DNA of 64,000 nucleotides from Patescibacteria group bacterium (GTDB taxonomy: Bacteria > Patescibacteriota > Patescibacteriia > UBA1558 > GWA2-36-10): positions 907,377 through 971,376 of the forward strand of contig JAHJQF010000001.1 in NCBI GenBank assembly GCA_018819405.1, in the 5' to 3' direction. The notes under the pieces are model-generated. The model ran no database searches, was not told the origin of the DNA, and saw only the letters and a list, made by a program, of their open reading frames with translations. Made by a program: the position numbers and the translations under genes. Shown piece after piece: positions 3,770 through 55,473 of this stretch. Every line of letters starts with the position of its first letter. Position 1 is the stretch's first letter.

Positions 3770-4057
3770 TTACAATTTATTATATAAATTAGCCCAATTT
3801 TTATTATATTTTTCTATTAAATCAATCTTTTTCTGTCTTGACCCCGCTTTAATTTGCTTTTCTCTAGATATAGCTTCATAAGCATCTTCATATATTTCAT
3901 AATATACTAATTTATTGATACTATATCGTGATGTAAATGATTTATTATCTAGTTTTTCTTTATGTTGCCATACTCTAACAATTAAATCATTTGTTACTCC
4001 TGTATATAATGTACCCTGTTTATGATTAGCCAAAATATAAACAAAATATTGTCTCAT
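3770..4057 (-). CDS. GIY-YIG nuclease family protein (small, about 95 aa)
   Basis: YFVYILANHKQGTLYTGVTNDLIVRVWQHK = GIY...YIG motif. Confidence 0.8.
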   Translation of the reverse strand: MRQYFVYILANHKQGTLYTGVTNDLIVRVWQHKEKLDNKSFTSRYSINKLVYYEIYEDAYEAISREKQIKAGSRQKKIDLIEKYNKNWANLYNKL

Positions 4058-40146: not shown

Positions 40147-41334
40147 TTACTTTAAAATTTTGGTTACTACAGCAGCACCAACAGTACGTCCGCCTTCGCG
40201 GATAGCAAACTTGGATTTTTCTTCCAAAGCTACTGGAGCTATCAATTTGATCTTCAAATTGATAGTATCTCCTGGCATAACCATCTCAGTACCTTCTGGT
40301 AATTCAACTTCACCGGTTACATCAGTAGTACGGATATAAAACTGTGGCTTGTATCCTTTGAAAAATGGAGTGTGACGTCCACCTTCTTCTTTACTCAAGA
40401 TATAAGCTTCAGCTTCAAATTCAGTGTGAGGAGTGATAGAACCTGGTTTGGCCAAAACTTGTCCACGTTGTATTTCATCTTTTTTGGTACCACGTAACAA
40501 AATTCCAGCATTGTCTCCTGCCCTACCTTCTTCCAACTGCTTATTAAACATCTCAATACCAGTAACAACAGTCTTGCTAGTGTCTTGTAGACCGACCATT
40601 TCAACTTCGTCATTTAGTTTGACAACTCCTCTTTCAATACGTCCGGTAACTACAGTACCACGACCTTCAATTGAAAAGATGTCTTCAATAGGCATTAAGA
40701 ATGCGTGTTCAGTATCACGTTTTGGTTCTGGGATATACTCATCCAAAGATTTGATCAAATCCAAAATTGGTTTTGAATCATCACCTGATGGATTTTCCAA
40801 GGCTTTCAAAGCGGTACCTCTGATAATTGGAGTTTCATCGCCTGGGAATTCATATTTCTTTAACAAATCTCTAATTTCTTCCTCAACTAGATCTACGAGT
40901 TCTGGATCATCAACTTGGTCCATTTTGTTCAAAAATACAACAATGTATGGGACACCAACCTGACGAGCAAGTAAAATATGTTCTCTAGTCTGAGGCATTG
41001 GACCATCAGCAGCTGATACTACCAAAATAGCACCATCCATCTGAGCGGCACCAGTAATCATGTTTTTGACATAGTCAGCGTGACCTGGACAGTCTACGTG
41101 AGCGTAATGTCTTTTTTCTGACTCATACTCAACATGAGCAGTGGCAATAGTAATACCACGTTCTCTTTCTTCAGGAGCATTATCAATCTGATCAACGTCC
41201 TTTTGCTGAGCAACACCACCATGAGCGGCTAATACCTTCAAAATGGCGGCAGTCAGGGTAGTTTTACCGTGGTCTACGTGACCAATAGTACCCACATTTA
41301 TGTGTGGCTTTTCTCTTTTAAAAGCTTCTGCCAT
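40147..41334 (-). CDS. tuf: elongation factor Tu (start at [18 protein letters not shown]-track start is an upstream TTG)
   Basis: [11 protein letters not shown]-loop. Full EF-Tu. Confidence 0.9.
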
Positions 41335-41435
41335 TTTTATTCTTTCTCCTATGATAGCCCCCCGCAAAAATGTGGGGTTTGTGAGCCAGCTATCTTGATT
41401 AAAATTACTTAATTATCGTTATTTAAAACACACAG

Positions 41436-41464
41436 ATTATAGCACTGTTTTTTGATTTTGGCAA
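41436..41464 (-). promoter_or_regulatory. sigma70-type promoter TTGCCA-17-TATAAT for tuf
   Basis: Direct read on the minus strand. Confidence 0.6.
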
Positions 41465-41521
41465 GCCCCTAAGCGCAGTATATCTATTTTTTTGTTATAT
41501 TGACTAATATTAGCAAAAAAA

Positions 41522-41887
41522 CTAGTCAACTGGCTCTATATAATACCTATCATCATCACCCACTGCTGACTTATCAACAGTAGTTTTGTCATCAGTATTT
41601 TCTGGCTTTTTTTCATCCTTTCTTAGAGTGTCCACACGGAAATTTTCCAGGCTATAGTCATCTAAGTGCTCTTGAGAAGCTTTCCAGACGGCAATGTCAC
41701 GATTTATCTTGTCCAAAAGCTCGTCTTCAGACAATCCTTTGACTGATGACGGACCAGCCAACAAAGCCTCATATTCTTTGACGGTCATGATTACATAGGG
41801 TTCATGGTTGTCTGACAAAACAATAACTTTGTCACCGGTTTTGGCCGCTAGTTCCAAAACTTTGTCTATTTGTTTGTAATTTGGCAT
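41522..41887 (-). CDS. hypothetical protein, N-terminal Phd/YefM-antitoxin-like fold, acidic C-terminus
   Basis: KVIVLSDNHEPYVIMTVKEYEALL resembles the YefM/Phd N-domain. Weak. Confidence 0.3.
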   Translation of the reverse strand: MPNYKQIDKVLELAAKTGDKVIVLSDNHEPYVIMTVKEYEALLAGPSSVKGLSEDELLDKINRDIAVWKASQEHLDDYSLENFRVDTLRKDEKKPENTDDKTTVDKSAVGDDDRYYIEPVD

Positions 41888-41894
41888 ATATTTT

Positions 41895-41972
41895 CAGTTT
41901 AAAGTTTGAAAGTTATAAAATTTAAAGTCATTTTTTCTACTTTTTAACTTTGAACTTTTTAACTTTTTACTG
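41895..41972. repeat. AT-rich AAAGTTT/AACTTT repeat element. Family with 29808-29845 and 32108-32186
   Basis: Direct read. Confidence 0.6.
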
Positions 41973-42025
41973 ATTAAAGTGCTAGTATTTTATAGTAAAA
42001 TTAAGGCTTTTGTCAAATTTTAATC

Positions 42026-42067
42026 TAACCTTCGAGGTTAGATTTAACCTCGAAGGTTGCTTTTTTC
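42026..42067 (+). terminator. hairpin AACCTTCGAGGTT-n6-AACCTCGAAGGTT plus T-run. Insulates the promoter at 42070
   Basis: Near-identical to the secY terminator at 28472-28516. Confidence 0.65.
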
Positions 42068-42069
42068 TA

Positions 42070-42098
42070 TTGACAAAATAATAAATATGTGATATAAT
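42070..42098 (+). promoter_or_regulatory. consensus sigma70 promoter TTGACA-17-TATAAT
   Basis: Perfect hexamers and spacing. Confidence 0.7.
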
Positions 42099-42324
42099 AT
42101 TACATTACTATAAAAAGTTCTTTAAAAGTGGGATTTCCCAGGTACAAACTTGGAGGTTGGAGAGCAGATAAACTAGCTAGATTTTATTGGGTCTCTACTC
42201 AACAATTTCAGCCTAATTATCTGGTCTAAGCTGGCTTCGGCCAAAAGCTAGACATCTCTCCTCCAAATTTGTGCCTGGAAAAATACTCCTGGTACAGCTC
42301 AACCCATCCAAGGAAGGAAACGCC

Positions 42325-42471
42325 ATGTTGGTACTGGCTTACTGCCTCTGCAAGCAGGCTCCCCGAGCCGCGGCCAAGGTCTCCTACCTGATGCTCTGCA
42401 CCATGGTCGGCCCGACCCTGATTCTCCTGTCCGCCATGATCGCAGGGATGATCTACTCCCTGCACCTCTAA
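42325..42471 (+). CDS. 48-aa hydrophobic Cys-rich peptide (MLVLAYCLCKQAPRAAAKVSYLMLCTMVGPTLILLSAMIAGMIYSLHL) with strong SD AAGGAAGGAAA
   Basis: SD 6 nt upstream. One predicted TM helix. GC-rich codons. Confidence 0.4.
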   Translation: MLVLAYCLCKQAPRAAAKVSYLMLCTMVGPTLILLSAMIAGMIYSLHL

Positions 42472-42586
42472 AGATCTGAACACAACACCAACACCCGCCA
42501 GGATCCCACCTTTCAAAGACCTATCTCGAATAGGCCCCCTCCTAAGTCTATAAAAAATTATAGATTTGGGAGGGATATAATAAGGC

Positions 42587-42625
42587 CCGGTAATTATTTA
42601 CCGGTCTTTATTTTATTTTTAAAAA
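42587..42625 (+). terminator. intrinsic terminator CCGGTAA ttat TTACCGG plus long T-run
   Basis: Direct read. Confidence 0.75.
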
Positions 42626-42678
42626 AATATATAATAAAATTAGTTCTTTCCACCACCCACACCTGAGGAGGTGAAACC

Positions 42679-42879
42679 ATGCTGGGCATAAAACAAAAAC
42701 AATGTTTAATCGAAGGCCTGACAAGGCAAATCCGAGAAATTCGTATCAAAAAAATAACTAATCCAGTACAGATAGAAAAAATTATCCTGTACGCTATGCA
42801 AATGCGCCGAGAAAATATAATAAATGATTTCCAAGAAATCGGCACAACCAACGCTGAATTATTATCCTGGCTACCCTAA
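42679..42879 (+). CDS. 66-aa hypothetical protein with strong SD (GAGGAGGTGA)
   Basis: SD. Followed by the terminator at 42922-42962. Confidence 0.5.
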   Translation: MLGIKQKQCLIEGLTRQIREIRIKKITNPVQIEKIILYAMQMRRENIINDFQEIGTTNAELLSWLP

Positions 42880-42921
42880 GGAGAAAGGCCTAAACATGTT
42901 ACCAACAACCTAAAACCACCT

Positions 42922-42962
42922 ACTTCACGGAAGATTGGGTGGTTTTATATTTGAAGATATCT
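42922..42962 (+). terminator. intrinsic terminator AAAACCACC...GGTGGTTTT plus T-run
   Basis: Direct read. Confidence 0.7.
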
Positions 42963-42984
42963 TAAATAAAATAACTTTTATTAG

Positions 42985-43013
42985 TTGACAAAAACTATAC
43001 AATATACTATGAT
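42985..43013 (+). promoter_or_regulatory. sigma70 promoter TTGACA-17-TATGAT. Downstream near-palindrome TGTCAATTGATA in the leader
   Basis: Direct read. Confidence 0.6.
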
Positions 43014-43069
43014 AACTCTCTGTAATGTTCCCTGTCAATTGATAACCTCAGACTCAAAGGAGTGAGTTC

Positions 43070-43480
43070 ATGCCACTTGAATTTCAGCTTTTGTCACTGA
43101 TTGAGCTACGCCAATACGTGGCTCAGCTCAACGAAAATTCTCATCCCGGGTTTGTGTTTCGTATCTTGGTACAGTGTCTGTGCCAGATAAAGGCCGGTGC
43201 TTGCTGGCCACAAATTGGCACGACCCAAGTCGACATGCAGACGCTGATGCGCGTCTGTCACAAAAACCAGGTGAGACGTGAACTTCAGGCCATCCTGGCC
43301 AAAAATGAGTACACACCGCTGAATTTTGATGACGCGGAAAAACTGAGCTGCATCATGGAGGAGATCCAGCAATGTCACATCAATTGGAATGATCTTCCTG
43401 TATCTGAGAATGTATTGAGACAAATCATCAATATGGCCGCTTGCGGCTATGAACACTGCAATCAGCAAAAAATGGCCTGA
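43070..43480 (+). CDS. 136-aa Cys-rich hypothetical protein (about 50% GC), SD AAGGAG
   Basis: Good RBS. Own promoter and terminator. No recognisable domain. Confidence 0.55.
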   Translation: MPLEFQLLSLIELRQYVAQLNENSHPGFVFRILVQCLCQIKAGACWPQIGTTQVDMQTLMRVCHKNQVRRELQAILAKNEYTPLNFDDAEKLSCIMEEIQQCHINWNDLPVSENVLRQIINMAACGYEHCNQQKMA

Positions 43481-43482
43481 GT

Positions 43483-43530
43483 CTCGCCCCGCCGAACGCT
43501 ATCAAGCGTGAGGCGGGGTTTCTTTTTTAT
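43483..43530 (+). terminator. intrinsic terminator CTCGCCCCGCC...GGCGGGGTTTCTTTTTTATTTT
   Basis: Direct read. Confidence 0.8.
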
Positions 43531-43689
43531 TTTAATTTTTGAGTAAAGACTTTTTGTAATACTTTTCAAAATTACTTTCAGCAAAAAAATCCCAGCCTCT
43601 TAGCCATATTTTTATTTTTCTTTTTAGCATAAACATATATTTTAATTAGCTATAATATACAACGAAAAAATAAAATAAAAGTAACAAAA

Positions 43690-43713
43690 AAGGAGCGGAC
43701 TGATGCCCGCTCC
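43690..43713 (-). terminator. terminator hairpin GGAGCGG..CCGCTCC plus T-run (minus strand) after cdd
   Basis: Direct read. Confidence 0.6.
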
Positions 43714-43724
43714 CGACCGAATCC

Positions 43725-44237
43725 TCACCTGAGGGTGAAAACATGAGGCAAAAGCACCCCGATACTTGCCCGAAAAACAAAGCCCTCGGTGTTGACCGAC
43801 AGAATCGGCACTCTATTGTCGCCGTTGCAGTGCTCGCTGATAATCTGACGACAATCGCCACATGATGTGACCATACTACTGACATTAATCTTGCCCAGAT
43901 CAATGTCTTTGGGTGTCAGATTGAACTCACGATCAGCAGTCGCACCAGCCAAAACCAACATCCTAATATTGAGTTGTCCGCTGACTACCATGGCCGCTAG
44001 AGCTGAACGCTCGGCATGAGTGACTTTGTAGTGGGCGTACTCCACATTGCATCCGTAAAAAACGACGTTACTCTGACTGACCAGAGCACAGCCCACCTTG
44101 AAACCGGAATACGGAGCATAGGCATTACGCCTAGCATTGATAGCCTGCTGAACCAGGCCACGCCCGTCTGCTGACGACATGTCAGAAAAATGGAAAATTT
44201 CCACATCCCCGACCCGATGAATCTTGCTTGCCTGCAT
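43725..44237 (-). CDS. cdd: cytidine deaminase (start at MQASKIHRV with SD GAGGAGG)
   Basis: NAYAPYSGFKVGCAL, GCNVEYAHY, HAERSAL, SCGDCRQII zinc-ligand motifs. About 50% GC. Confidence 0.8.
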   Translation of the reverse strand: MQASKIHRVGDVEIFHFSDMSSADGRGLVQQAINARRNAYAPYSGFKVGCALVSQSNVVFYGCNVEYAHYKVTHAERSALAAMVVSGQLNIRMLVLAGATADREFNLTPKDIDLGKINVSSMVTSCGDCRQIISEHCNGDNRVPILSVNTEGFVFRASIGVLLPHVFTLR

Positions 44238-44320
44238 GACTAGCCTCCTCGTTTGTGCCATATACCTCTGGACAGAACTAAACTGGCTATAAATTAGCAA
44301 TAAAATATTTTTCTGTCAAA

Positions 44321-44349
44321 CCGCGTTAGAAAAATTTTTTCTAACGCGG
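44321..44349. repeat. palindrome CCGCGTTAGAAAAA/TTTTTTCTAACGCGG (CCCGTTAGAAAT-family variant)
   Basis: Direct read. Confidence 0.7.
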
Positions 44350-44350
44350 T

Positions 44351-44405
44351 AAACAAAAAACCCAGTCCTTCCTGCCTACCGATAGGCAAAGCACGAAGAA
44401 CTGGG
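44351..44405 (-). terminator. fusA terminator (CCCAGTCCTTC...GAAGAACTGGG plus U-run on minus strand)
   Basis: Direct read. Confidence 0.7.
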
Positions 44406-44419
44406 TAAATTTATATAAT

Positions 44420-46513
44420 CTAATTTTTCTTAATTATCTCTTCAGCAACATTGTGAGGCACCTGAGCATATTTTTTGAACTCCATAGAATAACTAGCTCG
44501 TCCCTGAGTCATAGATCTTAGAGCGGTAGCATAACCAAACATCTCAGATAGTGGCACTTCGGCATCAATAACCTTGGCACCAGCTCTATCGCTCATTTCA
44601 TGAACCTGTCCTCTCTTGGAATTCAAATCACCAATCACATCGCCCATGTATTGTTCGGGAGTGACTACTTCTACCGCCATGACTGGCTCTAAAATAACCG
44701 GGGTAGCTTTTTTGAAAGCTTCTTTAAAAGCCATTGAACCAGCTACTTTAAAAGCAGCTTCAGAAGAGTCAACATCATGGTAACTTCCATCATAAACAGC
44801 TACTTTAACATCTTGTATTTGATAACCAGCCAATATTCCGTTGTCCATGGTTTCTTTGATACCTTTTTCAATAGCCGGAATATATTCTTTTGGAATAACG
44901 CCACCTTTGATTTCTTCTTCAAACTCAAATCCAGTACCTCTTTCAAGTGGTTCCAATCTCAACCAACAATGACCATACTGACCACGACCACCAGATTGTT
45001 TGATATATTTTCCTTCTGCCTCGGCAGTAGCCGTAATGGTTTCTTTGTAAGCGACTTGTGGGGCACCGACATTGGCCTCAACCGAAAACTCACGCTTCAT
45101 ACGATCCACAATAATATCCAAATGAAGCTCTCCCATACCACCAATAATAGTTTGATTTGTTTCTTCATCTGATCGGACAGTAAAGGTTGGGTCTTCTTCG
45201 GCTAATTTTGCCAGAGCCATACCCATCTTTTCTTGATCAGCTTTGGTTTTTGGTTCAACTGCCACATGAATAACTGGTTCTGGGAAATCCATACTTTCAA
45301 GGACTACTTCTCTTTTTTCATCACAAAGAGTCTGACCAGTAGTTGTATCTTTTAGGCCAACAACAGCTACGATATCACCAGTAAATATTTCAGATACTTC
45401 TTCACGAGAGTTGGCGTGCATTCTAAGAATTCTTCCAATCCTCTCTCTTTTCTCGGTATTGGCATTAAAAACATAAGAGCCGGATTTTAATGTACCAGAA
45501 TAAACTCTTACAAAAGTCAGTTTACCAACATAAGGATCAGTCGCCACTTTAAAAGCCAAACCTACAAAAGGATCCTCATCTTTAGCCAAGACCGTGATAT
45601 GATTTTCTTCATTTCTTGGTTCGTGTCCGACAATTTCTGGTACATCAAGTGGAGATGGTAAATACGCAACAATGGCATCTAGCAAAAACTGAACTCCTTT
45701 GTTTTTTAAAGCTGAACCGACAAAAACTGGCACAATCTTGTTGCCAATAACGGCCTGTCTCAAAACTTTTTTCAAATCTTCAATAGCTGGTTCTTCTCCG
45801 CCAAGATATTTTTCCATCAAGGCTTCATCGTTTTCTACAATCGCTTCAATAAGTTTTCCACGGAATTCTTCTACCTTATCTTTCATGTCAGCTGGTACTT
45901 CACGTTTTTCAAATTGTTTACCGTCTTCATCAAGATAATACCAAGCTTCTCTTTCTAAAAGATTGATAATGCCTTCAAAAGTTTCAGCTGCTCCAATTGG
46001 CAACTGCATTGGATGGGCAGATTTTGTCAATCTATCATGAATAGTTTTTAAATCATAATAAAAATCCGCACCCATTCTATCCATCTTGTTTACAAAGGCT
46101 AGGCGGGGCACATGATATTTGTCAGCCTGTCTCCAGACAGTCTCCGACTGTGGTTCTACTCCAGCTACTCCATCAAAAACAATCACACCACCATCAAGCA
46201 CGCGCAATGATCTTTCTACTTCTACAGTAAAATCTACGTGACCTGGGGTATCAATAATATTGATATTGGCTTTGTCACCACCCAACCAGTCAGGTAAATT
46301 CCAAAAACAAGTAGTCGCGGCAGAAGTAATGGTAATACCTCTTTCCTTTTCCTGTTCCATCCAATCCATTTCAGCTTGCCCTTCATGGACTTCACCGATT
46401 TTATGTTTTTTTCCTGTATAAAAAAGAATACGCTCCGTCACGGTAGTCTTACCAGCATCAATATGAGCAATAATTCCAATGTTTCTTATTTTTTCAAGTG
46501 GATGTCGAGGCAT
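44420..46513 (-). CDS. fusA: elongation factor G
   Basis: AHIDAGKTT, full-length EF-G. Confidence 0.95.
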
Positions 46514-47512: not shown

Positions 47513-47546
47513 ATTTAACTTAAAAAATAAAAAATACGACTGTTCT

Positions 47547-47576
47547 TCCCGCGTAGCGGGATCCCGCTACGCGGGA
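47547..47576. promoter_or_regulatory. perfect 30-bp GC palindrome TCCCGCGTAGCGGGA|TCCCGCTACGCGGGA in the rpsL leader, followed by a U-run on the mRNA strand (attenuator/terminator or operator)
   Basis: Direct read. Confidence 0.6.
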
Positions 47577-47638
47577 AAAGTCCCCAATAAAATAGCATAA
47601 AAAAATATATAAGTCAAGAATAATAGCCAAAATTAATA

Positions 47639-47681
47639 CCCCTCCCCCTTAGATTTTGTGAATCTTTGGAGGAGGGGCGGG
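47639..47681 (-). terminator. hairpin CCCCTCCCCC...GGAGGAGGGG after the GC-rich lipoprotein gene
   Basis: Direct read, one mismatch. Confidence 0.5.
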
Positions 47682-47706
47682 TTTCAGGCCCTAATGAGAG
47701 ACCTGA

Positions 47707-48360
47707 CTAGTCGATCAGGACGTAGTCGGTGATGTCGCCGTTGTAGACATCGCGGACCTTGATATTGTCCTCATCCCAGGCTCCGACAAAGGTCGGAGGC
47801 GTGCCGAACTGAGTGTTGTTGCGCACTTCAAACCAGGCGTACTCGCCGCGAGTAGTCCAGGTCGGGTAATCCCCTCCGATCTTGACGTGATCACCGAATG
47901 GCACACCATTCGATTCTCCCGTGTAGCCCCAAGGATAGCCCGGCTCAGTGCTGTAGACAGCCCCTAAACCACTGTCGACGAGAGTCCAGCCATTGACATC
48001 GCTGGTGGTCACGGTGAAAGGTAGCTGGTAGCCCCGAGCTTCGCCAGAAGGATAGACCTTCTGGTAAAACATCACTGCCCAGTAGCCAGTGGCGTAACCG
48101 TAGGGCGAACGGGAGCGAGTCAGAATGATTGTGTCAGGATCGGCAGTTTTCAGAACGGACTGAATACCCTGCCAGGTCGAACTGTCCTCCGCACTCCGAG
48201 AGGCCACGTTCATGACATCCTCGAAGCCGCCGCTCTGGTTGGTCGCGTTGACCTGATCGACGATCGAGGTCTCCGGAGCCGTGGTCTGGTCCATGTTGCT
48301 GCAGCCGGTCAGCCAGGCGAGGCAAACCAGCATTAAAGTGATTGCGATGATTCGCTTCAT
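47707..48360 (-). CDS. GC-rich (about 58%) lipoprotein (lipobox LTGCS), unknown function
   Basis: Signal peptide MKRIIAITLMLVCLAWLTGCSN. Protein-like composition. GC content strongly atypical for the genome. Confidence 0.6.
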   Translation of the reverse strand: MKRIIAITLMLVCLAWLTGCSNMDQTTAPETSIVDQVNATNQSGGFEDVMNVASRSAEDSSTWQGIQSVLKTADPDTIILTRSRSPYGYATGYWAVMFYQKVYPSGEARGYQLPFTVTTSDVNGWTLVDSGLGAVYSTEPGYPWGYTGESNGVPFGDHVKIGGDYPTWTTRGEYAWFEVRNNTQFGTPPTFVGAWDEDNIKVRDVYNGDITDYVLID

Positions 48361-48640
48361 GGTTAGACTTCTCCTTGTCTCAGATACAATAGTTTTGCCT
48401 CATTGAGGCGCTTCGAAAAACTGCAGGTGTGAATACACTGCTGTTCATGCTCTTACGGGTAGCGCAACCCCCCTTAACGCTTTTTAACTCCTTTACAAGG
48501 CAAATCAATTTCCATGTTCAAGGCAAGTTGTCGAGCAAAAGTTGCGTGAAATCTATAAATTAATCCTGTGACCAGGAAAAAATGCAACGAACTTTTACAA
48601 ACAATTATAAAAAATACACTAAAAATAAATTCTTGTCAAT

Positions 48641-48673
48641 AAAAAGAGCCCCCGCAGCATAAGCCGTGGGGGC
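48641..48673 (-). terminator. GC hairpin terminator (GCCCCCGCAGC...GCCGTGGGGGC plus U-run)
   Basis: Direct read. Confidence 0.6.
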
Positions 48674-48716
48674 CTGTCGATCACTCTACGACCACGTGAG
48701 GCCAATGCGGCCTGGG

Positions 48717-48827
48717 TCAGGCGATCGTCACCTCGCTCGCCGTCGTCTTCTTGACGGTCTTCTTCTTGGTAGCCTTCTTGGCGACCATCTTCATCTGCAT
48801 CTGGACACTGGGTCTTCGTCGATTCAT
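48717..48827 (-). CDS. 36-aa lysine-rich peptide MNRRRPSVQMQMKMVAKKATKKKTVKKTTASEVTIA with SD AAGGAGGA
   Basis: Strong SD 8 nt upstream. Flanked by terminators on both sides. The upstream 43 codons of the track ORF are AT-rich non-coding-like. Confidence 0.45.
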   Translation of the reverse strand: MNRRRPSVQMQMKMVAKKATKKKTVKKTTASEVTIA

Positions 48828-48929
48828 ATTGGGAATCCTCCTTATGGTATCACAATGACAGACAAATGTGCTGACTATGATAGCCAGCACGCGAGTATAT
48901 TTATAATAACATAAGCAAAAAAAACAAAC

Positions 48930-49006
48930 AATAAAAAAGAGCCCCCGCGGAAGCACCTCACTGGGCGCGATACTGAGATCGCGTGCAGAGGGTGCCCCGC
49001 GGGGGC
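48930..49006 (-). terminator. compound GC hairpin terminator (GCCCCCGCGG...CCGCGGGGGC) plus U-run
   Basis: Direct read. Confidence 0.6.
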
Positions 49007-49082
49007 CAGCAGCCTGATTGGCCAGCTTGGCGATGGGCGTATAGCCCGTGAAGACGCTGGCGACAGGCCGAAGCGCGTCACC

Positions 49083-49175
49083 TTACTGGGTCTCCAGCCC
49101 AGGGGTGACAGGCGTGGTCATCGGAGGCGCGTCGGACGCCTCGGCAGGAACATCGGGCAGGGTCCAGAAGAGCAT
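49083..49175 (-). CDS. 30-aa peptide MLFWTLPDVPAEASDAPPMTTPVTPGLETQ (SD GGAAAGGAG). Start overlaps the upstream stop (ATGATG)
   Basis: Paralogous N-terminus to 49175..49330. Confidence 0.3.
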   Translation of the reverse strand: MLFWTLPDVPAEASDAPPMTTPVTPGLETQ

Positions 49176-49330
49176 CATCGCTCCTTTCCGGCAACTGCCG
49201 AAGGTTGTCTGTAGCGCTCGGTCCATACGCCGGCCTCAACGGCGCGGTACCACCTGTGGCACGAACTGTTTCCGACGAGCTTAGTCGCCGGGTTCGCACC
49301 CGAATCGTCGGGAAGGAGCCAGTAGAGCAC
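49175..49330 (-). CDS. 51-aa peptide (GTG start) VLYWLLPDDSGANPATKLVG... (SD GAAAGGAG)
   Basis: DNA around the start about 80% identical to the next ORF start. The SD region is also palindromic, so it may be RNA structure instead. Confidence 0.25.
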   Translation of the reverse strand: MLYWLLPDDSGANPATKLVGNSSCHRWYRAVEAGVWTERYRQPSAVAGKER

Positions 49331-49415
49331 TGCTTCTCCTTTCGACTGGTTGTGTAGCTCCGAAGTGGAGCTACATGGTGCGGCTAGCTAGCCGCCGGGG
49401 CGCTGGCGCCCAGGT

Positions 49416-49523
49416 CTAGCTGCCGCGCCGCCGGCCGCGGACGTCGGTCGTGGAGGTGTTGCCCATGAGCACGAAATAGTTCGTGTAAGTGGCGACCGGA
49501 CGGCCGCGGATGTGGATCGACAT
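49416..49523 (-). CDS. 35-aa peptide MSIHIRGRPVATYTNYFVLMGNTSTTDVRGRRRGS (SD GGGAGGA). Member of the M-x-I-R-x-R-G-R-P short-ORF family
   Basis: SD 6 nt upstream. DNA about 80% identical over the first 10 codons to 54092..54136. Confidence 0.4.
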   Translation of the reverse strand: MSIHIRGRPVATYTNYFVLMGNTSTTDVRGRRRGS

Positions 49524-49678
49524 TGGGATCCTCCCGTCGTTGCATCATGGCAGGTTTTGTCCAGACTAGCTGGACGCTACATCCCACTTGGGGATACCAT
49601 TTTCCGTTGCTTAGACTTGTTGCGTATTCACTAGGAAATGATCGGGCGACTAAAAATATTTTTTAATCACGATTTTGT

Positions 49679-49706
49679 ATTATAGCACAAATAAAAAATT
49701 TGTCAA
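49679..49706 (-). promoter_or_regulatory. sigma70 promoter TTGACA-16-TATAAT whose -35 is embedded in the palindrome TTTGTCA-n8-TGACAAA (49699-49720)
   Basis: Direct read on the minus strand. Confidence 0.65.
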
Positions 49707-49739
49707 GAGCCCCTGACAAACCTTTTAAAAATACCAAAA

Positions 49740-50378
49740 ATGGGTATTTTATATAAATCTAGAAATAAAATTGATAAAAAAGTCAAAAATATGCCCAAAA
49801 ATATTAATGTTCATAAAATTATCCAAAATTATCAAAACTATCAATATCCAAGGCCCATTTATAGTAAATTTACGCTTAAATTCGTCAAAATGAGCTGGCA
49901 AAAAGGCAAAAAGCACTTTGGAGCCATCAAGTGGTGGAATAGGTATAAGATTAAAAACTCCCAATATAAGATTGACTAATATCAAATAAAACAAAAATAT
50001 AAAAACTAGATTATCAATAGGCAAAAACTTGAGCAAAAAATTAGCAATTATTATAAATAAAGCTACATTAATAAAGTTGGAAAGCGGACCAGCCAGTGAC
50101 ACAAAAGCATCTCCCCAACGACGCCAACGAAGATTATAAGTATTGACCGGTACTGGTTTGCCCCAACCAAAACCGGCGAAAAGGAGCATCAAGGTACCCA
50201 AAAACTCCATATGAGCCAAAGGATTGAGAGTCAAACGACCATTTTGACTAGGGGTATTGTCTCCCAAATAATGAGCCGCCAAAGCATGAGCAAACTCATG
50301 AATAGTTAAAGCATATATAATAGATAAAATAACTATTAAAAATATTTTTGGATCGCTAAATAATGTGGAAATTAACAT
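49740..50378 (-). CDS. M50-family site-2 protease (HEFAH zinc motif), AT-rich native gene
   Basis: HEFAHALAAH. Multi-TM. Confidence 0.7.
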
Positions 50379-50785: not shown

Positions 50786-51085
50786 CTACCTGCTACTAGC
50801 GCAGGCCATGACGATCTTCTTGATCAGTCTCCTGACAGGGTGAGCCCTGATCAGCTCATCGCCGATGATCTGGTAGTGTCTTCCCTCACCATGAGGATCG
50901 AGATAGACCAGACGGGTCCGCGTATCCCAGATGGGCCAAGGTTGGCCTGCTCTGCGCAGACGACCGGTCGAGACATAGTCTCTTCCATCATAGCTCTGCT
51001 CTTCCACCAGTTCAACCGATGAAAAATTGTTGGGAAAAGGCACCCAACGGCGTCCGTCAATCGTCGCCCCAGCTTGTTTCGACAC
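50786..51085 (-). CDS. GC-rich (about 55%) hypothetical protein, about 100 aa, GTG start with SD GGAGG
   Basis: SD plus GTG. Own terminator. No recognisable domain. Confidence 0.4.
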   Translation of the reverse strand: MSKQAGATIDGRRWVPFPNNFSSVELVEEQSYDGRDYVSTGRLRRAGQPWPIWDTRTRLVYLDPHGEGRHYQIIGDELIRAHPVRRLIKKIVMACASSR

Positions 51086-51486
51086 AAGTAACCTCCAGTG
51101 TTTGTTTGGGCCAATATATGTGGCTGATAAAGCCACGGGATGAACAAAATATATTTTACAATACCACTCTTTGCAATTTTGGTCAATTATAAAAACCCCT
51201 GGCCTAAACTCGGGGTAAAAACAAAAAGGCGTTGTTATAGTTTGAAAAACTAATAAAACACCTTTTTGCTAGCCATTTTGTTGCATGAATTTGTGCCTTA
51301 GTAATTAATGACTATTGTAGCTTTGCTTTTTTATATGTATAACCCCTTTGTAAAAGGGTGGTGCTCGCAGACTAAAGGCCCCAGCCCAAGACAATATAAA
51401 GCACCAAGGCAATAATGTTGTAGAGTTACATATGTTAAAAAGAAGCTACATTTATAATATAACATCTTTTAAAAATCATTGCAAAA

Positions 51487-52672: not shown

Positions 52673-53167
52673 TTAGGCCGCCATCAGGCGGCCAGGCCTA
52701 TTGCCGGGCGGGACGTCTTCCCTGCCGCCGTAATGGCCGAGGATGGAGCTCTTGTTCATCGTCACCTGGTAGTAGTCCCAGATGGCATCACCGGCCGAAG
52801 CCGACACACACAGTGCGCTCAGTGAGCTGGGAATCTTGATATATACCGGATCCAGATTGCTGACGACGCTGGAGCTCTTGTAGTAGAGCCCAACGGCATC
52901 ACCGGCCGAAGCCGCCACACACAGTGCGCTCATGTTACAGGACTCGTTGATCTTCTTCAGGACGACGGTCGTAGTGTTCGCCGTCGTGTCCATGTGATTG
53001 GCGATCGCCACGGCGATGTCCGTGCCGTCGGTGACCGCATACCACAGGTCGTTCTTCGCGTAACTGACCTGGCTGGCCATCGCGCCGCAAGCAAGCAGCA
53101 TGATGACGGCCACCAGAGCCAGAGCGGCGCCCATCATCAGACGCGAGGGTCCACGAATGTGATGCAT
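52673..53167 (-). CDS. GC-rich (about 62%) lipoprotein with internal duplicated motif SALCV(A/S)ASAGDA(V/I)..YY
   Basis: Signal peptide and lipobox ALALVAVIMLLACGAMA. SD GGGAGGAAG. Confidence 0.55.
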   Translation of the reverse strand: MHHIRGPSRLMMGAALALVAVIMLLACGAMASQVSYAKNDLWYAVTDGTDIAVAIANHMDTTANTTTVVLKKINESCNMSALCVAASAGDAVGLYYKSSSVVSNLDPVYIKIPSSLSALCVSASAGDAIWDYYQVTMNKSSILGHYGGREDVPPGNRPGRLMAA

Positions 53168-53409
53168 GTCTTCCTCCCTGAATGGGGACTAAAATGACTA
53201 CCTAAGGTAGCCGGCGAATGATACTCGGTTAAAAAACCTCCTTGGCTTTTGGTCTCACTATAATGAGTATACTTCCATAGGAAATATACTCGTGAAATTG
53301 TACAATACATATTTGAACATACAATATTTTGTAAATTCTGTCAATAACTATAAAAAATTCTACCCTGACCCAAGCTACTAAGTTTTATAGCTAATCTTCA
53401 TCACTTTTG

Positions 53410-53467
53410 GATAAAATCTATAAAAGAAAACCGGGCGAAACTCACTATGTGAAGCTTGTCTCGCCCG
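53410..53467 (-). terminator. cassette unit-1 terminator (CCGGGCGA..TCGCCCGG plus U-run)
   Basis: Direct read. Confidence 0.6.
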
Positions 53468-53661
53468 GTCAGGTGGTTGGCCCGAAGGCCACCGGATCGC
53501 TGTGCGATCATTTTTTGAGCCATTGGGCTCGAAGAAAAGAATATTGGGATTTTTGGAGATGGGCCTTGAGTCGCTTAAGTGCCCGGTCAGTTGGCCCGAT
53601 TACTCTGGCCGAGCTAAAGGTGGAATCGAAGCTTCATCGGCGACCTCGCTGGTCAGGCGGT

Positions 53662-53739
53662 TCATGCGGCCTTCGTGGCTGTACGGCGACGCAGCTCGGC
53701 GACGGTCTCCCTCGGGGGTCCAGTGTTTCGAATCTTCAT
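53662..53739 (-). CDS. 25-aa peptide MKIRNTGPPRETVAELRRRTATKAA (SD GGAAGGAG). Short-ORF family member
   Basis: SD 7 nt upstream. RBS region homologous to 49524-49545 and 54137-54160. Confidence 0.35.
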   Translation of the reverse strand: MKIRNTGPPRETVAELRRRTATKAA

Positions 53740-53876
53740 GATCAGACTCCTTCCTCGAGTCGCTTCAGAAAATTCCCGCCAAAATTAGCGGCATAGGAGA
53801 TGTGGCTCCTTCCAATATCGGCTGGGCTCCTGCCCTCCCCTATAGACCAACAGATCTAGCGAGAACGGCTGTTTTT

Positions 53877-55182: not shown

Positions 55183-55473
55183 TCACAAAAAATCATCGCT
55201 AATATCCTCCCATTTTTTATTAACCGATTCCACTAAATTGTTCTTCCAATCTCTATGCCAATTTTTTAATTGTTTTTCTCTACAAATAGCATCATGCATA
55301 TGCTGATATACCTCATAATAAACCAGCTTTATAACATTATATGGCTTAGTAAAACCAATAATATCTTTATTTTTGTGTTGTTTTATCCTATTTATTAAAT
55401 CGCCAGTGACACCAATATACATAACATTATTATTTTGATTAGTTAAAATATAAACATAATATTCTTTATTCAT
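55183..55473 (-). CDS. GIY-YIG nuclease family protein (paralog of 3770..4057)
   Basis: YYVYILTNQNNNVMYIGVTGDLINRIKQHK. Confidence 0.8.
   Translation of the reverse strand: MNKEYYVYILTNQNNNVMYIGVTGDLINRIKQHKNKDIIGFTKPYNVIKLVYYEVYQHMHDAICREKQLKNWHRDWKNNLVESVNKKWEDISDDFL

Follow-up and report, generated by a model that had tools for sequence, protein, structure and literature searches.

The genes for elongation factors G (EF-G) and Tu (EF-Tu) stand next to each other in the canonical str operon (rpsL-rpsG-fusA-tuf, followed by the S10 operon), and a long run of other genes between them raises the question of how it came to be there. We examined such a locus in a window of 64,000 nucleotides, which is part of a 1.04-Mb contig (ENA ERZ27247117 k141_591135; NCBI locus tags KKH39_049xx) of the Patescibacteria, or candidate phyla radiation (CPR). 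On its minus strand, the window shared with the canonical operon the order and orientation of rpsL (47512-47084), rpsG (47052-46588), fusA (46513-44420), tuf (41334-40147), rpsJ (40069-39731) and then rplC, but the end of fusA (44420) and the start of tuf (41334) lay 3,085 bp apart. Read from fusA to tuf, this gap held the fusA terminator, the cytidine deaminase gene cdd (minus strand), the small genes p136 and p66 (both plus strand), a plus-strand transcript of a structured RNA carrying the 48-codon open reading frame (ORF) p48, the small gene p121 (minus strand) and the tuf promoter. An initial annotation had reported the separation of about 3 kb and five units with their own promoters and terminators; the distance, the ORFs and a promoter and terminator scan against shuffled sequence bore out both observations. 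It had also interpreted the whole gap as one horizontally acquired island. Our comparisons point elsewhere: with a probability of roughly 70%, the 3 kb forms an accessory slot that is permissive and specific to the lineage, lies where the str operon is naturally broken, and is made up of three layers.

The fusA-tuf break in related genomes

We fetched 80 loci around EF-G relatives from GTDB representatives, all with an EF-G at most 75% identical to that of the window. The fusA-tuf spacer had a median length of 628 bp in CPR-like genomes (92-6,727 bp; n = 41) and of 136 bp in non-CPR bacteria (Bacillales, Acidobacteria and others; 40-251 bp; n = 20). The premise that fusA and tuf are normally contiguous therefore failed for this lineage, in whose relatives the median gap of 628 bp holds a homologue of p121, and the 3 kb can be called an insertion into a conserved junction only relative to non-CPR bacteria and not within the CPR group. 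The upstream anchor, fusA (44420..46513, minus strand), encoded a 697-aa product with the Pfam EF-G domains, which was 75-88% identical to EF-G of Patescibacteria metagenome-assembled genomes. The species representatives with identities of up to 75% carried the labels Falkowbacteria, Kerfeldbacteria or Patescibacteria, and EF-G on the short metagenome contigs L083/84, L088, L089 and L090 was 86-88% identical (L-numbers denote the related loci and contigs compared with the window). The downstream anchor, tuf (40147..41334, minus strand; Pfam domains present), was 75-89% identical to its relatives.

The gene p121 (41522..41887, minus strand) lies just upstream of tuf. By iterative profile search, a homologue was found in 25 of the 33 CPR spacers analysed (within L003-L057), always on the fusA/tuf strand and, with L004 as the sole exception, directly upstream of tuf; L089, L091 and L093 also had one upstream of tuf. 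Members of the family shared an N-terminal region ('KTGDxxIVfD...fVvMxLxEYExL'), a conserved helix ('GL(T/S)EDELLDKINRDIAxWK') and an acidic-aromatic C-terminal tail ending in 'EDRxY(L/I)EP', for which the form 'DDRYYIEPV' was also recorded. The family as such was absent from Pfam and NCBIfam, and we regard it as modestly novel. Judged by its conserved position, p121 is native to the locus and not acquired.

The N-terminal ~45 aa of p121 aligned with the fold region of YefM, and the initial annotation had accordingly called the gene Phd/YefM-like. Against the family of these type II antitoxins (PF02604, PhdYeFM), p121 scored 23.5 bits (E = 4.7e-5), below the gathering cutoff of 29.8; 10 of 26 members of the p121 family matched it weakly (best member, E = 1.3e-6), and YefM structures matched p121 with E of ~0.1. 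Unlike these antitoxins, p121 has an additional helix and the acidic-aromatic tail, and many genomes have it as a single copy in a syntenic position, in contrast to the patchy distribution of toxin-antitoxin loci. No toxin gene (YoeB, Doc or RelE-like) was found next to p121: in the window as in 25 related loci, tuf was the next gene downstream, and the gene upstream varied. Doc, the partner of Phd, targets or modifies EF-Tu, and a syntenic YefM/Phd-like protein encoded beside tuf might by analogy be an EF-Tu-directed factor, which we offer as speculation.

The larger inserts in other CPR genomes all lay between fusA and p121 (6.7 kb in L014, 5.5 kb in L021, 3.4 kb in L033 and 2.5 kb in L043, and also L022 and L030), and they carried unrelated genes. 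Across the CPR group, the break between fusA and p121-tuf is therefore a place where DNA has been inserted repeatedly. Whereas the canonical operon runs on from fusA to tuf, the rpsL-rpsG-fusA transcript of the window would end at a terminator-like hairpin read from the sequence (44355..44405, minus strand; a CCCAG...CTGGG stem followed by TTTTTT). Promoter-like sites were found for p121 (41987..42016, minus strand; TTGACA, 18 nt, TAAAAT) and for tuf (41436..41464, minus strand; TTGCCA, 17 nt, TG-TATAAT), each matching 11 of 12 consensus positions. Over the whole gap we counted 16 promoter-like sites, compared with 8.1 ± 2.6 in shuffled sequences, and nine terminator-like sites, compared with 3.2 ± 1.8, an excess that supports independent units. 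The native layer would thus consist of a fusA with its own terminator and of p121 just upstream of tuf, with p121 and tuf each having a promoter of its own, so that DNA inserted between fusA and p121 would spare the expression of the essential genes. Beyond p121, the CPR group differs from the canonical operon in a variable slot of 0.4-6.7 kb between fusA and tuf.

A small structured RNA and two helical proteins

Divergently from p121, the plus strand carried a promoter that matched the consensus at 12 of 12 positions (42070..42098; TTGACA, 17 nt, TG-extended TATAAT). From this promoter and a terminator we predict a transcript of ~500 nt (~42105-42612), which would comprise a structured core of 145 nt (42136..42280; a long closing helix and a three-way junction), a GC-rich insert (56% GC; 42283..42534) with p48, and a 3' region (42537..42612) with a conserved hairpin (42537-42574) and an intrinsic terminator (42587-42604) followed by a T-run. 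The core was present behind the same promoter in the window, L083/84, L093 and L094; the promoter itself was conserved in L083/84 and L093 and was partly visible at the start of the L094 contig. Between the window and L083 the conserved parts were the promoter, the 145-nt 5' domain and the 3' hairpin with the terminator, and the 145-nt domain was 83% identical, exceeding the neighbouring coding DNA. A further hairpin (42026-42059, plus strand; a 15-bp stem and a T-run) lies between the divergent p121 and RNA promoters and has no plus-strand gene upstream of it.

Covariation carried the structural assignment. Among four distinct sequences (window, L083, L093 and L094), the consensus of the core had 49 pairs, 16 of them with compensatory double changes; 98% of the cells were paired, compared with 31-44% when the partners were slid by 1-3 columns, and none of 500 column shuffles reached the observed values. 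The 3' hairpin (14 pairs) showed one compensatory and one half change against L083. The z-scores of the minimum free energy were -7.6 for the window and -12 for L083, and covariance-model matches to the core reached 148-163 bits. Two covariance models, R1 and R2, detected no homologues outside the four lineages in ~0.97 Mb of CPR loci. In gathering mode, Rfam had no family for this RNA in the 64-kb window, and in E-value mode the island and L083 gave chance-level matches only (all at most 22.7 bits, far under the cutoffs). A pattern scan of viral contigs for the motif returned nothing, and so did an exact-pattern scan of JGI metagenome contigs, in a collection that evidently lacks L084, since this known JGI contig was also missed. 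By its covariation, the RNA is a well-supported new structured RNA family, and we consider its novelty modest. An integron-cassette reading of the palindromic core was set aside, as its loops are conserved in sequence and each unit has a promoter of its own; no scan of the window for an integrase was made.

Such an RNA could be either a small RNA in its own right or a cis-acting leader, that is, a riboswitch or an attenuator for a downstream small ORF and/or for p66-p136. In the window, L093 and L094, the core precedes p66 on their shared strand and is separated from it by an intrinsic terminator, which fits a leader; in the window (p48) and in L093 (36 aa), the core is also followed by a small ORF with a hydrophobic N-terminus. 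However, the ORF of L094 precedes the core, L083 has the RNA without an ORF and without p66, L091 has p66 without the RNA, and Rfam gave no riboswitch match. The unit was bounded by a terminator in all four genomes, and in L093 p66 is preceded by its own -35 box (TTGACA) past the RNA terminator; these two observations favour a stand-alone small RNA over a leader, which we retain as a possible but tentative alternative. A stand-alone RNA with a strong promoter, an intrinsic terminator and a conserved structured core resembles orphan structured and dual-function small RNAs, and in some genomes of this group the transcript carries a short ORF. SR1, RNAIII and SgrS are small RNAs that also carry a small ORF. 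The present RNA differs from dual-function RNAs in having no Rfam match and in that its ORFs are unrelated between genomes and lie on either side of the core, which suggests secondary insertions rather than a conserved second function.

The ORF p48 (42325-42471, plus strand) is hydrophobic and has a G+C content at third codon positions (GC3) of 0.86, with 0.53 and 0.41 at first and second positions, a periodicity of the coding type. It had no homologue among 5.8 billion proteins. Where the window has ~250 nt of GC-rich sequence, L083 had 110 unrelated nt without an ORF; in L093 an AT-rich ORF of 36 codons followed the core, and in L094 a GC-rich ORF of 119 codons stood ahead of the core, behind the same promoter. 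Since the ORFs of the different genomes were unrelated to one another and some preceded the core while others followed it, each seems to have entered this strongly transcribed unit independently, and the p48 segment looks like a later addition to this genome. Being inside the RNA transcription unit, p48 would be expressed from the consensus promoter of the RNA. A 96-aa ORF overlapping p48 on the minus strand was rejected as a gene because the GC periodicity favours the plus-strand frame, and it had no Pfam match.

The next two plus-strand genes encode helical proteins. The gene p66 (42679..42879) belongs to a Patescibacteria family and is followed by a terminator read from the sequence (42912..42950; hairpin AAAACCACC...GGTGGTTTT, then a T-run). 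The gene p136 (43070..43480) belongs to a clade-specific family, is convergent with fusA and cdd, and ends at a GC-rich hairpin, again read from the sequence (CGCCCCGCC...GGCGGGG, then a T-run; 43484..43530). Between the two lie overlapping, divergent promoter-like sites (42985..43038), one for p136 (42985-43013, plus strand) and one antisense to p66 (43038-43009, minus strand), each with 11 of 12 consensus positions; this block was 72% conserved in L083-L088. The minus-strand site, which overlaps the p136 promoter, may yield an antisense transcript of p66. Structure models of both proteins were three-helix bundles. Fold searches with these models returned generic helical bundles only, and Pfam and NCBIfam gave p48, p66 and p136 chance-level matches only. 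Minus-strand ORFs of 85 and 120 aa over p66 and p136 were rejected as genes, since the plus-strand genes have conserved homologues; neither had a Pfam match.

An exhaustive HMMER search found four relatives of p66 (41-58% identity). Few relatives of p136 were found among the 5.8 billion proteins, and every one with a visible context was convergent to fusA or cdd; identities were 73% (L083/84), 69% (L088), 29% (L089; pairwise E = 7e-16) and 20% (L091; E = 4e-9). An alignment scan of metagenome and viral contigs confirmed no further p136. The label 'Cys-rich' that p136 had been given proved weak, as a single Cys is invariant in the family. In L093, rpsJ, tuf and p121 were followed divergently by the RNA and p66; in L091/92, p121 was followed divergently by p66, a 157-aa ORF and a p136-like gene, and then by the end of fusA. 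In L090, p66 was convergent to the series fusA, cold-shock gene, pilin-like gene and CarboxypepD_reg gene, and in L094 the RNA was followed by p66 on a contig without a fusA, p121 or tuf anchor. At 143-879 of L085, a p136 gene that matched the one of L083 exactly was followed by an inverted gene for ribosomal protein L28 instead of fusA; the fusA...L28 segment may be inverted in that strain, or the 1.1-kb contig may be misassembled.

The second, clade-level layer of the slot would thus lie on the strand opposite to fusA and tuf and would consist of a strongly promoted, terminator-bounded small RNA with p66 and p136, components that recur at this site, in varying combinations, in at least five related lineages and would have been gained, lost and diverged rapidly. 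Their adjacency leads us to infer a joint action of the RNA and p66/p136, which might, for example, form an RNA-protein pair or stand to each other as regulator and target. One could go further and take them for an undescribed, Patescibacteria-restricted RNA-protein module at a translation-factor locus, whose transcription unit would repeatedly take up and express foreign GC-rich small ORFs (p48, the 119-aa ORF of L094 and the 157-aa ORF of L091), but we regard this extension as rather doubtful.

The cytidine deaminase gene and base composition

The gene nearest to fusA, cdd (43725..44237, minus strand), encodes a protein of 170 aa (178 aa from an upstream ATG) that matched PF00383 with 52.0 bits (cutoff, 25) and PRK05578 with 84.4 bits (cutoff, 74); the stricter equivalog model TIGR01354 gave 93.1 bits and its cutoff of 113.65 was not reached. 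The zinc-ligand and catalytic motifs HAERSAL and SCGDCRQ aligned with CAE and PCGxCRQ of ten relatives. The motifs YAPYSGF and NVE fell in invariant or nearly invariant columns; from what is generally known of the cytidine deaminase of B. subtilis, we take their residues to be ribose or base contacts. The protein therefore shares (H/C)AE, the CxxC of (S/P)CGDCRQ, NVE and YAPYSGF with the homotetrameric type of cytidine deaminase (PF00383, PRK05578/TIGR01354). It differs from that type in its first zinc ligand (His rather than Cys), in its score below the equivalog cutoff and in an N-terminal extension (~20 aa) and an internal insertion (~15-20 aa before CxxC), both shared solely with two relatives (84% and 69% identity); the next-best homologues, taken as an outgroup, were at most 42% identical. 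It is predicted to be an ordinary-looking zinc-dependent cytidine/deoxycytidine deaminase. On two outgroup contigs, the homologue stood with deoC, purine/uridine phosphorylase (PNP) and phosphopentomutase-type genes in one case and adjoined a carbohydrate-kinase gene in the other, whereas the gene of the window is solitary, has its own promoter and lies beside fusA, outside a deo-type operon. Inferred from its family, the product of cdd most likely feeds pyrimidine salvage.

The gene has the parts of a self-contained cassette: a promoter-like region with a 5' leader (44238..44319, minus strand; TTGACA, 17 nt, TGcTAATTT), the coding sequence and a terminator (43691..43714, minus strand; a stem of ten pairs, seven of them GC, then a T-run). 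A perfect 15-bp inverted repeat (44320..44350), absent in the alignment with L089, abuts the -35 box and may be an operator or a hairpin. Homology between the window and L089 started exactly at the -35 box, with ~96% identity from there to the ATG and ~79% in the coding DNA, and the stretch of the fusA terminator next to it could not be aligned. Among the five lineages whose fusA-proximal side was visible, two had cdd (the window and L089), and L083/84, L088 and L091 lacked it at their fusA end. Identity between the window and L089 at four-fold degenerate sites was 0.66 for cdd (71 sites; chance, 0.27) and 0.48 for fusA (186 sites; chance, 0.36). Presence in two lineages together with a lower synonymous divergence than that of fusA indicates that cdd was probably gained later, and the pattern fits a self-contained cassette that either arrived after the species had split or has been exchanged between lineages. 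A scan of viral contigs for p66 and cdd found neither. The third layer of the slot would consist of these add-ons, namely the cdd cassette with its promoter, leader, gene and terminator, and the GC-rich 250-nt segment with p48.

Base composition had been a main argument for acquisition, as the units were said to have 50-55% GC in a background of roughly 30%. The window had 36% GC and the whole 3-kb region 40.6%, so that the stated background was too low; the claim of elevated GC held for cdd, p136 and the p48 segment and failed for p66 and p121. The GC3 of native genes was 0.287 ± 0.029 (52 genes of the window). The values of cdd (0.54), p136 (0.55) and p48 lay 5.6-8.1 standard deviations above it, and those of p66 (0.36) and p121 (0.39) were near-native (z = 1.1-2.1). 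The high GC3 of cdd and p136 was kept in all orthologues (0.51-0.55, and 0.75 for the p136-like gene of L091) beside a fusA of 0.26-0.35, and for this reason it is not a simple mark of recent transfer; the four-fold synonymous sites of p136 were few (15-34) and close to chance identity, that is, to saturation. A recent transfer that has simply not yet been ameliorated does not, on these comparisons, explain the persistent GC3 of cdd and p136. Selection is a possible cause, as are biased gene conversion in a slot prone to recombination and repeated replacement from a GC-richer external pool.

The proposal that the whole 3 kb is a recent horizontal cassette island in an otherwise contiguous junction draws on this GC3, on the promoters and terminators of the individual units and on the fact that cdd, p136, p66 and p48 occurred near fusA in none of the 80 GTDB representative loci. 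It must, however, accommodate a junction that is natively split in relatives, a p121 kept at the site across the wider group, an RNA, a p66 and a p136 that recur at the same site in related lineages, and the near-native composition of p66 and p121. The marks of mobility that were looked for were not found either. There was no tRNA gene in the 64 kb, no repeat family flanking or bounding the region, and no similarity of the island to phage and plasmid collections by blastn; PHROGs gave nothing meaningful for the island proteins (cdd was sub-threshold, E = 0.056). The small proteins scanned matched no mobility family, and no integrase was noticed in the region, although the larger ORFs of the window were not scanned for integrases or transposases. 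A literature search found nothing relevant. Since p121, the RNA, p66 and p136 are conserved neighbours at this site in relatives, the island reading is largely refuted for four of the five units; a horizontal origin stays plausible for cdd and p48, and a single island is unlikely.

Weighing the locus and its surroundings

The proximity of a deaminase, a hydrophobic peptide and small proteins had also been taken to suggest a toxin-antitoxin or anti-phage module, with p121 as a Phd/YefM antitoxin, p48 as a type I membrane toxin on a structured mRNA and the deaminase as an effector. Apart from the weak PhdYeFM match, this idea can point to p48, which is short and hydrophobic and is preceded by a long structured leader; in the minimum-free-energy fold, the sequences 5' and 3' of p48 pair with each other over a long range, recalling the mRNAs of hok/sok-like type I systems. 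Such mRNAs carry a toxin peptide, whereas the conserved part of this unit is its noncoding core: p48 lacks conservation and is missing even from the orthologous RNA gene of L083, and neither a convincing antisense promoter over p48 nor an antisense RNA gene was detected. PADLOC matched no family for the five island proteins and four other GC-rich ORFs, p121 falls under the Pfam cutoff and is followed by tuf rather than by a toxin gene, and Cdd keeps the motifs of a nucleoside deaminase, with one of the two outgroup homologues in a deoC/PNP salvage operon. A toxin or defence module is therefore very improbable.

An assembly chimera of CPR sequence with GC-richer DNA of another organism, to which the sharp GC shifts on a 200-bp scale might point, can hardly be the explanation, because a contig from a second assembler (Logan, run SRR6514730) was 100% identical over 5,360 bp including both junctions, orthologous arrangements were present in other samples, and the GC-rich ORFs are embedded at a sub-kb scale in AT-rich promoters, ribosome-binding sites and terminators of the native type. 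Protein tables with largest contigs of 1,035,872 and 1,035,212 bp suggest that this genome has been assembled once more, with a slightly different result.

Several points weigh against a layered accessory slot. The related contigs were few and mostly short (0.7-7 kb), and the presence or absence of a component was often undecided at contig ends. The link between the RNA and p66/p136 is one of adjacency: in L089 and L091 the proteins occur where the RNA does not, and in L083 the RNA is present but p66 is missing. An 'IGTT..L' motif is common to p66 and p136, but their profile comparison was not significant (E = 0.027). The -10 element of cdd is weak (3 of 6 positions) and was not called by the promoter scan, and the lower synonymous divergence of this gene was computed from 71 sites. 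Finally, the high GC3 of cdd and p136 in every lineage would be left unaccounted for by a purely vertical native module.

Other GC-rich units with small ORFs were observed between conserved genes within 12 kb in the same genome, at least two of them missing from L088. The spacer between rpsL and an M50 peptidase gene (47620-49749) measured ~2.1 kb, compared with only ~0.5 kb in L088. It contained a 217-aa lipoprotein-like ORF (47707-48360, minus strand; GC3 0.71), a basic ORF of 36 codons (~48716-48826, minus strand) and a predicted transcript of ~700 nt (~49710 down to 48950, minus strand; ~60% GC by eye) with a consensus promoter (TTGACA-17-TGcTATAAT) and several mini-ORFs preceded by Shine-Dalgarno sequences, two of which start alike (LYWLLPD and LFWTLPD). 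In the corresponding spacer of L088 (4230-4470, minus strand), two tandem elements of ~120 nt with complementary ends (CCCCATTAGAAAT...ATTTCTAAACGGGG) were followed by the consensus promoter of a tiny, terminator-bounded transcript. Three orphan ORFs with a GC3 of 0.52-0.78 sit between native genes (L28/NDK and a response regulator): 50786-51136 (minus strand; 116 aa), 52673-53167 (minus strand; 164 aa) and 53407-53796 (plus strand; 129 aa). None of the three had a Pfam or PADLOC match, and PHROGs matched only the 164-aa ORF, weakly (E = 0.019-0.086); this ORF contains an internal direct repeat of 56 nt (52766-52821 and 52877-52932).

The upstream leader of rpsL contained a perfect palindrome of 16+16 nt (47546-47577; TTCCCGCGTAGCGGGA / TCCCGCTACGCGGGAA). 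The sole Rfam match in the window was a cobalamin riboswitch (RF00174; 62919-63050, minus strand; 35.5 bits, gathering cutoff 31.5). Two ORFs of ~95 aa (3770-4057 and 55183-55473, both minus strand) start with 'Y(F/Y)VYIL(A/T)N...YIG/YTGVT..L..R...H' and, judged by eye, look like putative stand-alone GIY-YIG nuclease domains.

For annotation, these results mean that a gap between fusA and tuf is normal in this CPR group, and that GC-rich small genes in it are by themselves no proof of a recent island or of contamination. The persistently high GC3 of specific genes in a genome of 36% GC would, if general, bear on the inference of gene transfer from composition. CPR lineages usually depend on external nucleosides, and the cdd cassette is a plausible case of salvage capacity gained by a bacterium that is probably dependent on them. 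A new structured RNA, a p121 locked to tuf and a fast-evolving pair of helical proteins are testable objects for CPR biology, and they adjoin core translation genes in organisms whose regulation is barely known.

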